From IMG/VR virus record IMGVR_UViG_3300044724_002767, positions 1 through 27,616 of that record: a stretch of 27,616 nucleotides of DNA, one strand, 5' to 3'. Position numbers and translations under genes: made by a program. Every line of letters begins with the position of its first letter. Position 1 is the stretch's first letter. This DNA comes from a virus (lineage: Duplodnaviria > Caudoviricetes). Positions 8,829-26,210 of the stretch are shown piece after piece. The notes beneath the pieces were generated by a model. That model searched no databases. It was not told the DNA's origin and saw only the letters and a list, made by a program, of their open reading frames with translations.

Positions 8829-9257
8829 TCATATATTTTTATCACTCTCCACTAAACTCCTGTTCACAATATGTTCATCTTCTATTTCTTCTTTACTTTG
8901 TCCAAAGTAAGCGACCGCATAATGTTCTCGTATCATGAAATCATTAAGCGTCATCTGGGCATCTGTCTTTGCATCGTGTATAAGAAATTCACCCAAAATT
9001 CTTCCGTATTTTCCTTTGCCGTCTTGTCTGGTGCGTAGTGTTTGTGTTGAACCAACTGGCAAATAACTTAACACAACTTCTTTTGCCATTAGGCCATAAA
9101 TTTTTTCTACTTTATCTGAAGTGCGACTTTCTGGTGTATCAATACCATAAAAACGGATTCTTTGTTTCTTTAACCAAACACCAAAGCCCAAGTCGATATC
9201 AACATCAGCAGTGTCTCCATCGATCACCTTTACAATTTTACATTTATATTCATACAC
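8829..9257 (-). CDS. Thermonuclease (SNase-like)
   Basis: VIDGDT, RIRFYGIDTPE, GKYGRILG; GTG start at 9257 with GGAG upstream. Confidence 0.88.
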   Translation of the reverse strand: MYEYKCKIVKVIDGDTADVDIDLGFGVWLKKQRIRFYGIDTPESRTSDKVEKIYGLMAKEVVLSYLPVGSTQTLRTRQDGKGKYGRILGEFLIHDAKTDAQMTLNDFMIREHYAVAYFGQSKEEIEDEHIVNRSLVESDKNI

Positions 9258-9558
9258 CGAAACTTTCTCCACAACCACAAGATGATGTTGCTGATGGATT
9301 TGAAACCTTGAGAAATGAACCAGATAAATCAGTAACATAATCCACTTGACTTCCATCAAGATATGTTTCTGCTTCGGGATCTATTAACAAAAATCCCTCG
9401 ATAGGTTTTATGCATGGTTGCATACGATTATCCTCGCTTGCAATTCCCCACACATATTCAAATCCATTACAACCGCCCGACTTTACGCCAAGCGTAACGT
9501 AGCCTTCATTGGCTGCGCTCTGTAAGTATTCTTTTGCTAATGGTGTTAATGTTACCAT
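9250..9558 (-). CDS. A-type Fe-S carrier (IscA/SufA/HesB family)
   Basis: GGCNGFEY and CGCGESF; late promoter TATAAATA at 9565-9572. Confidence 0.92.
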   Translation of the reverse strand: MVTLTPLAKEYLQSAANEGYVTLGVKSGGCNGFEYVWGIASEDNRMQPCIKPIEGFLLIDPEAETYLDGSQVDYVTDLSGSFLKVSNPSATSSCGCGESFGV

Positions 9559-11178: not shown

Positions 11179-11514
11179 TTATACAGAAAAAGATGAACCG
11201 CAACCACAGGTAGTCGTTGCATTGGGGTTTTTAATCACAAATTGCGAACTTTCTAGACTCTCACTGTAGTCTATTTCTGCTCCCATGAGGTATTGCACAC
11301 TCATAGGATCTATTAGTAATTTGACCTTTCCATTCATTACGACTGTATCTCCATCACCCTCTTCTTGGTCAAATGTAAACCCATATTGAAAACCAGAACA
11401 CCCACCACCAGAAATAAACACTCTTAACATAAGACTGTCATCACCATCAAATTCGTCATCAATTAGTGTTTGAACTTTATGAGCAGCTGAATCTGTGAGT
11501 ATTAGGTCTTCCAC
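11179..11514 (-). CDS. erpA: Fe-S cluster insertion protein, ErpA-like
   Basis: [43 protein letters not shown]. Confidence 0.92.
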
Positions 11515-18223: not shown

Positions 18224-18553
18224 ATGGCAGAAGAAGAAAAAAAAGAATACCACCCAGCAGACTCTAATGGCGATGGAAAGGTATCCAAAGAAGAAGAACA
18301 GATGTATCTAGAGTTCAAACGCAAAGAACTAGAAGATGCAGACGCAATGAGAGATGCACAACGCAACATGGCATGGTTTGCACTTGCAGGCATGTTATTG
18401 TATCCTGTATGTGTTGTTGTTTCGGTTGTATGTGGTATTGATTCAGCCGCAAAGATATTAGGTGACATGGCAGGAGTTTATTTTATTGCGGTTGCTGGTA
18501 TTGTTGCAGCTTTCTTTGGCGCACAAGCACTTTCAAAGACACCTAAGAAATAA
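18224..18553 (+). CDS. Membrane protein with an EF-hand-like loop and two hydrophobic helices
   Basis: DSNGDGKVSKEE loop; two TM-like segments; basic C-terminus. Confidence 0.75.
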   Translation: MAEEEKKEYHPADSNGDGKVSKEEEQMYLEFKRKELEDADAMRDAQRNMAWFALAGMLLYPVCVVVSVVCGIDSAAKILGDMAGVYFIAVAGIVAAFFGAQALSKTPKK

Positions 18554-18564
18554 GGATAAGTCAG

Positions 18565-20373
18565 ATGGCAGATGAAATAGTTTCAGCATTAAATGGTCTT
18601 AGCAAAACCACTCAAAAACTGGTAGACGATAGGCAAGCAGAATCAGATAAAGCTGATAAAGATCGTAAAGAACGAATGTCTGCATTAAATAAACAGATTA
18701 AAGATGGTGATGGTAGAACTAAAGAAATAAAAGAAGCTAAAGCTGAACTGAATCAAATAAAAGTTAATGCAAAAGTAGCGAAATCAATTAATCTAGAAAT
18801 ATCTAGATCAGCTGCGGCCGCACTAGGTATTAGTGAAGAAGAATTGAGAGCAAGAAAAGAACAACTAATATTACAGAAAGATGATAAAGTTGCAACGGAA
18901 CAACTTGCAGAATCAATTAAGTCATCTACTGTTGACCAATTTGCAGAACAAAAAAATCAAGCAGAAATACTGAAAGCTACACTTGAAGCAAATGGTCAAA
19001 TTGCAACAGATAGTAAAGAATTTAATAAATTACAATATGAAATTCAAAAGTCAGAATTAGCAGAAAGATTAAAAAACGCTACAAGTGCGAGCGCACAAAA
19101 AGAAATAAAGGCTGAACAACGAGCATTAGCTGCAAAACAAGAAGGACTTCTTGGTAAGATTGCTGGTGGAATTACCTCTTTAAGAGATGGTGCAAAAGAA
19201 AAATTAAAGTCTGCTGGTAAAGGTGTGATGGCTCTTATAAAAGGGTTTGCAATTGCTGGTTTTGCAATTGCACTTATAGCATTTTTAAAAAGTCCACTAT
19301 GGGAAGACACAAAAAATTATATTGTAGATGTTGCTCTTCCCAAATTAAAAGAATTTTATAATGCGTTCTTTGGTGAAGGTGGCGGTTTTATGAAAGGAAT
19401 TAGCGAATTATTTGGTGACGAATCTGGTATTGGTAGCATAGTTATTGGAATAGGTTCGGTTGTTACTTTCTTAGTTGGAATGAAAATATTTCAAATTGCA
19501 ACAGCAATGGTAAATGGTTTTAAAGCAATAAAAGCTGGGTTCATAACAATGAAAGCTGCTATGTTAGCAACAAAAGCATCTTTAGCCACTACACTTGCAC
19601 CCCTTTTACCAATAATTGCAATCGCAGCTGCGATTGGTGTGGTTGTTTTTGCTCTTAAAACTGCATTTGATGATTTTCAAAAGACTTTGGAAGAAACTGG
19701 TAGTATAGGCGAAGCACTCAAAGTCGGAGGGGCTAAATTTATAGGATTTATTCTTGGATTTATACCTAGTATGATTACTAAACTAGTTGGTTTTGTTGCT
19801 GGTTTATTTGGATTTGAAAGCCTCAAAGAAAAACTAAATGCAATGAATCCTATCCAAACTATTTCAGATGCAGTTAAAAAAGTGTTTGATGGTATCGGCA
19901 ATTTCTTTAGTGGTATCCCCGAAAAAGTTGGAGCTGCTTTAGGTAATATGGCAGATATGGCTAAAGACTTTTTAAAGACCGTTCTCAGATCAGTGTTACC
20001 CAAGCCAGGTGGAAGTATGTTTAGTATATCGGGGATTGCATCAAGAGCTATTCCCAAAGGTGTCTATGAATTTGCTGGTATGAATCCAGAAACAGGAGAA
20101 TTAATTGCTCCAGTTGTTACTAACGCAGTAGCACCCAACCCAGCAATGGCAGGTAATGTTGCTGGTAGACCAAATTTTCAAAGTCTTATGGATACAAGAG
20201 CTAGACAAATGACCGAAGCAAAATTAGATAAGGCAACTGGTGGTTCAACTGTCGTGGTTGATGCAAAATCTACAAATGTTGTTAATAGTAATTCAACTTC
20301 TAGTGCGACCTTTACCAATACAAGTACGAGAAATCCTAACCCAGCAGTAGCTGCATTAAATTACTCTTACTAA
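18565..20373 (+). CDS. Tape-measure-like protein (gp29 analogue)
   Basis: 602 aa, N-terminal coiled coil, Ala/Gly-rich hydrophobic centre, location after gp26/gp51. Confidence 0.65.
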   Translation: MADEIVSALNGLSKTTQKLVDDRQAESDKADKDRKERMSALNKQIKDGDGRTKEIKEAKAELNQIKVNAKVAKSINLEISRSAAAALGISEEELRARKEQLILQKDDKVATEQLAESIKSSTVDQFAEQKNQAEILKATLEANGQIATDSKEFNKLQYEIQKSELAERLKNATSASAQKEIKAEQRALAAKQEGLLGKIAGGITSLRDGAKEKLKSAGKGVMALIKGFAIAGFAIALIAFLKSPLWEDTKNYIVDVALPKLKEFYNAFFGEGGGFMKGISELFGDESGIGSIVIGIGSVVTFLVGMKIFQIATAMVNGFKAIKAGFITMKAAMLATKASLATTLAPLLPIIAIAAAIGVVVFALKTAFDDFQKTLEETGSIGEALKVGGAKFIGFILGFIPSMITKLVGFVAGLFGFESLKEKLNAMNPIQTISDAVKKVFDGIGNFFSGIPEKVGAALGNMADMAKDFLKTVLRSVLPKPGGSMFSISGIASRAIPKGVYEFAGMNPETGELIAPVVTNAVAPNPAMAGNVAGRPNFQSLMDTRARQMTEAKLDKATGGSTVVVDAKSTNVVNSNSTSSATFTNTSTRNPNPAVAALNYSY

Positions 20374-23831: not shown

Positions 23832-23905
23832 TGGTGCTGGTACAAGGAATCGAACCTAGAATTGATGCTTACAAGGCAACTGTTATACCGTTTAACTATA
23901 CCAGC
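23832..23905 (-). tRNA. tRNA-Thr(UGU)
   Basis: GCTGGTA/TACCAGC acceptor stem, loop CTTGTAA, TTCGATT T-loop, encoded CCA. Confidence 0.92.
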
Positions 23906-23913
23906 AGTAAAAG

Positions 23914-23989
23914 TGGTGGAGTTAGAGGGGATCGAACCCACGACCTTCTGGATGCAAACCAGACGCTCTCCCAACTGAGCTATAACCCC
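23914..23989 (-). tRNA. tRNA-Ala(UGC)
   Basis: GGGGTTA/TAACTCC stem with G3:U70, anticodon TGC, encoded CCA. Confidence 0.96.
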
Positions 23990-24847: not shown

Positions 24848-25066
24848 TTATATAGGCAGTTGAGCTCTTTTAGGTAAAAAGTTCAAGTCTCTTGCATTTG
24901 CTTCAATTTTTTCTTTCAGTCCTTTAGAAATAAGAGAACCAACTGAATCAGGTTCAATGCCTTCTTTGTCGCAATAATATAGAATTGCGTCCATATGTGT
25001 AATATTTAAATCTTTAGCAATATTCTCTATTGCAACTGTAAATGTTTTTGATGTAGTAAACGCCAT
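24848..25066 (-). CDS. 33: Late transcription coactivator gp33
   Basis: MDAILYYC...IEP....LISKGLKEKIEANA..LNFL. Confidence 0.9.
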   Translation of the reverse strand: MAFTTSKTFTVAIENIAKDLNITHMDAILYYCDKEGIEPDSVGSLISKGLKEKIEANARDLNFLPKRAQLPI

Positions 25067-25089: not shown

Positions 25090-25265
25090 AAAGTGGTGAG
25101 TATTCTGTTGATAGGAACTCACCAAAACCCCGAGCAACTATGCGGCTAGCGCATAATCCTCAAGTGCAAAGTTATCTTCGTTTGCATTTATAGTTTTGAC
25201 CGATAACGGAATCACCCGACAATTCTCCACTCATCTACCTCTGCCTGTCGAACCTATTCAGCCCC
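25090..25265 (-). ncRNA. ssrA: tmRNA coding piece of a permuted gene; tag frame ANEDNFALEDYALAA* at 25185-25138
   Basis: 5' GGGGCTGAATAGGTTCGAC, ATAAAT-GCA resume context, tag ending YALAA, terminal GGTGAGT/ACTCACC hairpin; 3' end approximate. Confidence 0.93.
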
Positions 25266-25277
25266 ATCACAAACACA

Positions 25278-25403
25278 CTAGATATTTTTCTTAATCCACT
25301 TATAAGCTGCATAAGTGGCAAGTAAAATAAGTATTGTTCCAATACCATCAAACCAAGATGTTTCATTTATTGCATCTATAAGGTCTGCTGTAATCCAATC
25401 CAT
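25278..25403 (-). CDS. 41-aa single-helix membrane protein inside the tmRNA intervening segment
   Basis: GGAG-6nt-ATG; MDWITADLIDAINETSWFDGIGTILILLATYAAYKWIKKNI*. Confidence 0.75.
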   Translation of the reverse strand: MDWITADLIDAINETSWFDGIGTILILLATYAAYKWIKKNI

Positions 25404-25423
25404 TTTATTCTCCAATGTATTTG

Positions 25424-25486
25424 TGGTGGAGCTGGGGGGATTTGCACCCCCGTCCAGATCAGCTCTCAACTTGCATCAACAAATTG
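25424..25486 (-). ncRNA. ssrA: tmRNA acceptor piece of a permuted gene
   Basis: GAC-GGGGG-TGCAAAT-CCCCC-CAGCTCC-A-CCA; pairs with GGGGCTG at 25265 giving G3:U70; 5' end approximate. Confidence 0.92.
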
Positions 25487-25492
25487 TATCTA

Positions 25493-25529: not shown

Positions 25530-26210
25530 TTACGTTTTATTTTGTTCATTCCACTCCGCAATAGTTTCTACTAAAGAATTAAGGTAATCGTGTTTTTCTT
25601 TAACAAACTCTTGAACAGTTCCATCTTCTGTCACGACCAAGATAACCACCTGAGATATTTCTACACCTGTACGTTCACCAAACATTTCAGCATACGCAGA
25701 ACCTTGAATGTAATAACTTTCGTTGTATTCATCTTTACGTTCTTTGGTTGATGTTTTGAAATCTATAATAGACGGCACACCTTTATACTCAGCAATACAA
25801 TCAACTCTGCCTGCTACTTTGTACTTGTCACTGTACAATCCAGCTTCTTGAGCATAGATGTTGTCTATGTAAGTTAACGCATTATCTTTTAATTGTTGAA
25901 AAAGACAATACGGTAAGAAATGTTTTTTGTGTTTCTCCCATTCCATTGGAGAATTAAATTCAACATTGTTTAAATAGTCTTCACACATATGATGAACTTT
26001 AGTACCACGATTTGCAGCTGTTCTTGATATGTGATTAGCAACATCGTTACCTACACGTTTACGCCATTCTGCTATTCCTTTCTTATTACGAACTGATAAA
26101 ACAGTTGTAATTGATGGATACTTATTACCCTCTGGGGTTTTGTATAGACGTACTCCGTCTTGGTTTGTTGCGGTTATAGGTTGCAACTCCACTGGTTTGT
26201 GCTGAAACAT
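25530..26210 (-). CDS. PD-(D/E)XK exonuclease
   Basis: YPSITTVL, RGTKVH, AGRVDCI, IIDFKTS, Q..AY. Confidence 0.9.
   Translation of the reverse strand: MFQHKPVELQPITATNQDGVRLYKTPEGNKYPSITTVLSVRNKKGIAEWRKRVGNDVANHISRTAANRGTKVHHMCEDYLNNVEFNSPMEWEKHKKHFLPYCLFQQLKDNALTYIDNIYAQEAGLYSDKYKVAGRVDCIAEYKGVPSIIDFKTSTKERKDEYNESYYIQGSAYAEMFGERTGVEISQVVILVVTEDGTVQEFVKEKHDYLNSLVETIAEWNEQNKT

Follow-up and report, generated by a model that had tools for sequence, protein, structure and literature searches.

Phages are known to encode two-piece tmRNAs, and the tmRNA passages of PMC9004378 place them mostly in marine phages. In the permuted form of the gene an intervening segment (IVS) separates an acceptor piece from the coding piece that follows it, and the parts of PMC11915505 that deal with this form report that tRNA-processing enzymes release the two pieces. 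The same parts describe a tRNA-Ala gene inside one IVS and a repetitive element inside another, and they place homing endonuclease genes in group I introns of tmRNA; a protein gene in a permuted IVS is not among the cargo that they report. The tmRNA of Methylophilales phage Melnitz has the same acceptor piece-IVS-coding piece order as the locus described here, the same alphaproteobacterial type and the same site upstream of the late coactivator gene, and the tmRNA passages and section 8 of PMC9004378 do not mention an ORF in its IVS. Coxiella likewise has an ORF inside a segment that is excised from a stable-RNA precursor, its S23p IVS; the passages of PMC4990558 on this IVS describe a single ORF family that is excised by RNase III, is apparently not made in vivo and is eroding. 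The phage spacers described below differ from the Coxiella case in holding many ORF families, in showing purifying selection, in belonging to a tRNA-like precursor and in being enriched in viruses. Our search of open-access text found no account of protein genes in the IVS of a permuted tmRNA. The presence of a protein gene in the tmRNA spacer of phages appears to be undescribed in the literature searched, and it generalises across marine phages.

The window analysed here is a stretch of viral DNA of 27,616 nt (IMG/VR record IMGVR_UViG_3300044724_002767). A reading of its ORFs identifies it as a segment of a T4-like marine myophage with DNA polymerase, baseplate and ssDNA-binding-type genes, and PHROG labels in the window include PhoH, exonuclease, late coactivator and helicase loader. 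Its minus strand carries a permuted two-piece tmRNA of alphaproteobacterial type with the tag ANEDNFALEDYALAA* (ARAGORN), matched in Rfam by RF04321 at 105.6 bits and RF01849 at 75.7 bits. The acceptor 3' piece with its CCA comes ahead of the 5' piece with the tag frame, the tRNA-Ala-like acceptor stem with G3:U70, the discriminator A and the T arm are all present, and the tag frame closes in a proteolysis signal (..ALAA*) according to ARAGORN. An earlier note made from these letters had proposed that a protein-coding gene fills the IVS, and its minus-strand coordinates all hold for the IVS, GGAG, ATG, 41 codons, TAG and the G at which the coding piece starts (25265). The pieces of the tmRNA and its flanks are as follows.

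25530 to 26210, minus strand: upstream neighbour, a phage exonuclease gene (phrog_298 by PHROG match), syntenic in L481
25493 to 25524, minus strand: putative promoter-like site read from the sequence, TTGACA (25524-25519), 18 nt, then TATAAATA (25500-25493)
25424 to 25487, minus strand: acceptor piece with T arm, acceptor 3' strand, discriminator A25427 and CCA (25426-25424), from ARAGORN and the RF04321 match, which begins at 25487; the start is predicted
25266 to 25423, minus strand: intervening segment and cargo slot, 158 nt, coordinates checked
25092 to 25265, minus strand: coding piece with 5' GGGGCUG (G3:U70 pair), tag reading frame (25185-25138) and 3' hairpin (ARAGORN, Rfam)
24848 to 25066, minus strand: downstream neighbour, a late-promoter transcription coactivator gene (phrog_254 by PHROG match), with the helicase loader next as in Melnitz

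The TATAAATA element upstream of the tmRNA is one that we take to be a T4 late-promoter motif. The TTGACA...TATAAATA layout also occurs in Melnitz and in L481, and upstream of the cargo loci considered below TATAAATA is found in 41 of 72 and TTGAC in 25 of 72; the site is absent from the output of a sigma-70 scan of the window. On the strand of the tmRNA, some 1.1 kb further downstream, genes for tRNA-Ala(UGC) and tRNA-Thr(UGU) lie 8 nt apart (23832-23989). Elsewhere in the window two separate ORFs (9250-9558 and 11179-11514) have cysteine motifs from which we presume a resemblance to IscA/ErpA-type iron-sulfur carrier proteins.

Two described arrangements were considered for this locus and rejected. 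A group I intron form of tmRNA with a homing endonuclease does not fit, as there is no Rfam intron match, the T loop is intact and the ORF is without a Pfam match. An S23p-type IVS does not fit either, as the locus is a tmRNA and not helix 45 of 23S rRNA and the ORF encodes a 41-residue single helix with no Pfam match. In contrast to the cargo described in the above parts of PMC11915505, the window locus has no intron, splicing or mobility enzyme, and phage cargo is diverse. What distinguishes this locus as a member of RF04321 and RF01849 is that its IVS holds a protein gene; the IVS of Melnitz likewise has an ORF, which is unannotated. The gene in the window has two parts.

25410 to 25413, minus strand: Shine-Dalgarno-like (SD) GGAG, 6 nt ahead of the ATG; GGAG or AGGA precedes 10 of 10 spacer variants of the gene
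25278 to 25403, minus strand: 41-codon ORF (ATG at 25403, TAG at 25280-25278) with an acidic N-terminal half, a moderately hydrophobic helix and a basic C-terminus; recognized by homologs and dN/dS, with no assigned function

Analysis of homologs indicates that this gene is not confined to tmRNAs. A protein search with the 41-codon product gave 21 candidates, all of which match (78-100% identity), and relatives of 68-100% identity occur at 46 viral loci, 15 of them in a permuted-tmRNA spacer and 31 elsewhere. Distinct alleles over all fetched loci number 9 in spacers and 25 free-standing, so that 25 of 34 unique alleles are free. One more locus selected by its MDW prefix, L096, proved unrelated and is left out. 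For example, Mosig_00134 (QOI69096.1) of Pelagibacter phage Mosig is an annotated free-standing allele with 69% identity to the window peptide over 39 residues; it lies in the tail/baseplate region outside any tmRNA, whereas the window gene lies inside a tmRNA spacer. The Mosig gene directly precedes a 655-residue tail-region ORF; at what would be the comparable place in the window (18553-18565), before a 602-residue ORF, there is no ORF, and the 27.6-kb contig has no second copy. Among the free-standing alleles 21 of 25 begin on the stop codon of the preceding ORF, which is the usual sign of translational coupling.

Conservation of the ORF, on which its claimed coding status could stand or fall, speaks in its favour. 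The SD, ATG, frame and stop are intact in 9 of 9 spacer alleles, whose host tmRNAs are 60-99% identical to the window type and whose flanking arms differ yet still pair. In five alleles of the window clade, 25.3 synonymous sites carry 7 changes and 97.7 non-synonymous sites carry 7 (dN/dS ~0.26, p = 0.014), a small-number count of just 14 changes. Given the intact frame, the SD, a dN/dS below 1 and homologs in ordinary operons, the 41-codon ORF looks like a conserved protein-coding gene under purifying selection. The gene tree requires four changes between the spacer and the free-standing state. An AU test with a single origin gave no rejection (p = 0.146; 0.206 in another run; 0.222 without the long branch L479), and since the test is compatible with one origin we regard repeated independent capture of the gene as unestablished. 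Additionally, two free-standing copies lie near a permuted tmRNA but outside its spacer, one ~950 nt after it (L137) and one ~160 nt before it (L163).

The description of the product as a small membrane protein has moderate support. An AlphaFold model gives a single helix over residues 2-40 (pLDDT 79.9, pTM 0.38), as had been expected, but hydrophobicity is moderate, with a Kyte-Doolittle value of 1.25 for the best 19-residue window of the 41-residue peptide. The ORF has no match in Pfam, its sole PHROG match is phrog_9048 (weak, E 0.004), a family without an assigned function, and ESM Atlas returned matches to unnamed clusters only. The product would most likely be an accessory peptide of one helix that associates with the membrane, and because the gene sits in many other gene neighbourhoods its job would be unrelated to ribosome rescue. 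A longer, 63-codon reading from TTG at 25469 was rejected, as it would translate the tRNA domain and as the free-standing homologs have MDW, the second start, as their first residues; 10 of the 21 database matches are 63-66 residues long, with a start inside the tRNA domain.

The two ends of the IVS form a helix that includes part of the SD at one end and the stop codon at the other.

25411 to 25425, minus strand: 5' arm of the 15-bp closing helix, holding C75, A76 and three SD bases; pair probabilities 0.87-1.0, register covariation across phages
25268 to 25282, minus strand: 3' arm of this helix, with the TAG stop inside it; from folding and covariation

The 13-bp pairing with 3 G:U that the earlier note described is recovered with pair probabilities of 0.94-1.0, and the helix proves longer by two pairs (G25412-C25281 and A25411-U25282), which brings it to 15 bp and thereby pairs three of the four SD bases. 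Two of its pairs are formed by C75 and A76 of the tmRNA CCA. The predicted folding energy of the region is -60.5 kcal/mol, with z = -7.0 relative to 200 shuffled sequences. Stem covariation, which that note had named as a check, is borne out: across phages the arms covary with numerous compensatory pair types, and pairing at positions +1 to +9, uncorrected for kinship among sequences in all of these percentages, is 95.5% for 64 arm pairs of ORF-bearing spacers as against an arm-swap mean of 68% (maximum 72.7%) and 45-62% in slid registers, while 107 arm pairs of ORF-less spacers reach 91.3% as against 62% on swapping. The median duplex is 15 bp in ORF-bearing spacers, 15 bp in ORF-less ones and 14 bp in bacterial ones. 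A stem specific to ORF cargo is therefore rejected, as ORF-less spacers have it equally; because duplex length and pairing are alike with or without an ORF, we infer that the closing stem is a general processing feature that was not made for the ORF.

How general is such cargo? A length-blind sample covering 2 of 64 parts yielded 45 tag-checked permuted viral spacers of 4-159 nt, of which 37 are shorter than 100 nt and one of the 8 longer ones holds an ORF with SD and ATG; most phage spacers are thus short, and those with cargo form a minority. Another scan, ORF-blind and aimed at long spacers, covered 8 of 64 parts and gave at least 120 loci; once duplicates and loci that lacked a 5' piece or a tag-like signal had been removed, at least 87 unique spacers of 100-330 nt were left. 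Among the matches listed, an SD+ATG ORF fills 41 of 87 long viral spacers, as against a mean of 1.95 and a maximum of 6 in shuffles, so that an arrangement like that of the window (GGAG, ATG, 41 codons and TAG in 158 nt) is expected in only ~2 of 87; the reverse complements of the same 87 spacers gave none. Without the tag filter, 47 of 102 listed viral spacers are filled (2.4 when shuffled). Long bacterial spacers are at chance level, with 4 of 100 filled and 3.55 in shuffles. ORFs with SD and ATG fill viral spacers well beyond chance, unlike bacterial ones. The view that this segment is normally a non-coding spacer fits long bacterial IVSs but does not hold for the window IVS with its ORF under purifying selection.

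Pooling several scans, including RBS-biased and homolog-directed ones, gives a set of at least 73 cargo spacers in at least 33 BLAST families. One pair from each of nine cargo families gave pS 0.53 and pN 0.11, a ratio of 0.20 that is biased low by filtering of the pairs at 70% or more amino-acid identity. Two of 33 cargo representatives match Pfam, both DUF6356, and none of 32 other representatives matches PHROGs at 1e-3. As a strongly hydrophobic window is present in 11 of 33 representatives, the cargo does not consist chiefly of membrane peptides. The SD lies in or beside the 5' arm and is predicted to be mostly paired in 56 of 73 cargo spacers, and its steady position in the arm could be selected regulation instead of packing. 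The stop codon falls within the spacer in 42 of 73 cargo ORFs, among them that of the window, and in the other 31 (19 of 35 in the ORF-blind subset) it falls inside the coding piece, beyond the RNase P site. A TGA at -4 to -2 before the RNase P site serves as the stop in 12 of 73 cargo ORFs, and 14 of 73 end at +13, in the region of the acceptor 5' strand. Spacers end in TGAT in 132 of 156 cases, a figure inflated by design because TGAT is partly built into the scan pattern.

Individual loci extend this description. The annotated ssrA gene of Melnitz (MZ577097.1; L001:3102-3285) contains GGAG, ATG and a 54-codon ORF that is unannotated in GenBank; its IVS is 142 nt long and the ORF stops 42 nt into the coding piece. 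An IVS of ~499 nt (L183) has two tandem ORFs of 34 and 120 codons and lacks the TGAT ending that is usual for spacers; the 5' piece after it is a normal one of alphaproteobacterial type. One of the four filled bacterial spacers (L538) is on a contig in a Rhodobacteraceae bin and its cargo is homologous to that of viral L293; this contig is probably misbinned phage DNA. Two ORF-less long spacers (L088 and L121) have T-arm-like strings, GGTTCGATTCCC and GGTTCAAATCC, that recall the published case of a tRNA in the IVS.

Comparison of closely related tmRNAs establishes that the spacer slot is optional and swappable, with full, empty and swapped alleles. For example, L481 is syntenic with the window and matches the window tmRNA pieces at 98% and 94% identity, and the spacer of L481 is an empty 35 nt with the same stem and a 9-nt loop. 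The tmRNAs of L171 and L216 are 98% identical and have spacers of 223 nt and 5 nt, respectively. Cargo swapping, which the earlier note had raised, is seen in L295/L322 and in L214/L396, where tmRNAs that are 94% identical carry different cargo. L320 has a tmRNA 99% identical to that of L214, whose cargo differs; its own 37-codon ORF has its ATG at +7 in the 5' arm, no SD, and a stop in the terminal TGAT. A specific tie of the protein to tmRNA output, as had been suggested, is not favoured by these data: the stem is equal in ORF-less spacers, a near-identical tmRNA is empty and the gene is free-standing in many operons, which together favour an optional slot over a protein-specific link.

The explanation that we consider probable is that the loop of the spacer-closing stem is an optional slot for small genes, and that the 41-codon gene is translated from the uncut precursor before the stem closes, with the spacer then being excised. 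One transcript would likely be both messenger and tmRNA precursor, with the putative TTGACA...TATAAATA site as its source. The SD would be made ~130 nt ahead of its pairing partner, allowing ribosomes to load on the nascent or a read-through transcript, either before the 3' arm exists or while ribosome traffic keeps the helix open. Passage of the ribosomes beyond the stop codon, which lies in the 3' arm, would let the helix close, burying the SD and completing the tRNA-like substrate; host RNase P and a 3' nuclease would then free the two tmRNA pieces and the spacer would decay, possibly with a part for RNase III acting on the ~23-bp stacked helix. Competition between translation and tmRNA maturation, another suggestion of the earlier note, plausibly follows from this geometry. 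In evolution, insertions into the loop would spare the mature tmRNA and gain its promoter, and accessory genes may collect there for this reason.

Translation might instead be the point of the arrangement, with ribosome traffic opening the helix and the ORF acting, much as a leader peptide does, to set tmRNA maturation while peptide identity is secondary. Any ORF would do in that case, which fits 33 unrelated families; the overlap of SD and stop with the two helix arms in the window, the predicted pairing of most cargo SDs and the crossing of the cleavage site by 31 of 73 ORFs are also in its favour. However, a pure traffic sensor has no need of purifying selection on amino-acid sequence, near-identical tmRNAs exist without an ORF (L481, L216) and ORF-less spacers have the same stem, so we regard this reading as unlikely.

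We hold it to be quite unlikely that maturation frees a stem-protected ~155-nt RNA as the main template of the peptide, as the earlier note had proposed. The 13-bp end-to-end helix would survive cutting, and the L320 ORF, with its early ATG and no SD, would be nearly leaderless once excised. For the window ORF this route is open because the ORF ends inside the spacer, as do the 42 cargo ORFs noted above. As a general mechanism it is not favoured, since excision would turn 31 of 73 ORFs into non-stop messages, and the closed form pairs three of four SD bases in the window. Additionally, the Coxiella 23S IVS, the best-studied analogue, is rapidly degraded and its ORF is apparently not made in vivo, according to the passages of PMC4990558 that concern it. 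ORFs that stop inside the coding piece need uncut RNA to yield their full-length product; taken with the mostly paired SDs, the ORFs that run past the RNase P site favour translation of the uncut precursor over a released mini-mRNA.

The same Coxiella precedent (in those passages of PMC4990558), the occluded SD in the folded model and the mostly free-standing family (25 of 34 unique alleles) would be expected of a recently captured, silent passenger that has lost translation and owes its conservation to free-standing ancestors. This we judge very unlikely, as SD, ATG and stop are intact in all 9 spacer alleles across tmRNAs only 60-99% identical and the synonymous excess is seen inside the spacer-resident clade itself (p = 0.014). 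Least probable by far is a dead tmRNA, in which the insertion disabled maturation and left a promoter and a small gene between relics: a long spacer and ribosome traffic could conceivably hinder folding, but acceptor stem, G3:U70, T arm, CCA and the ALAA-ending tag are all intact and T-stem variants among cargo-bearing alleles still pair.

Beyond translation of the uncut precursor from an optional slot, a more speculative and in our judgement doubtful extension is that these loci are self-limiting cassettes of marine T4-like phages. Ribosomes on the cargo would hold the helix open and delay tmRNA maturation, closure would silence the SD and trigger processing, and ORFs crossing the cut site would give rise to non-stop messages that are cleared by the tmRNA itself, making a feedback loop among ribosome supply, rescue RNA and a swappable accessory protein.

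Annotation can miss such genes beneath a tmRNA call, as in Melnitz, or mis-start them within the tRNA domain. A supposedly disposable spacer is a gene slot in abundant marine phages, with at least 33 families of small proteins. Because filled, empty and exchanged versions of the slot occur in nature, and because Melnitz is in culture together with its host OM43, direct tests can be made of how translation interacts with the processing of stable RNAs and of what phage tmRNA does.
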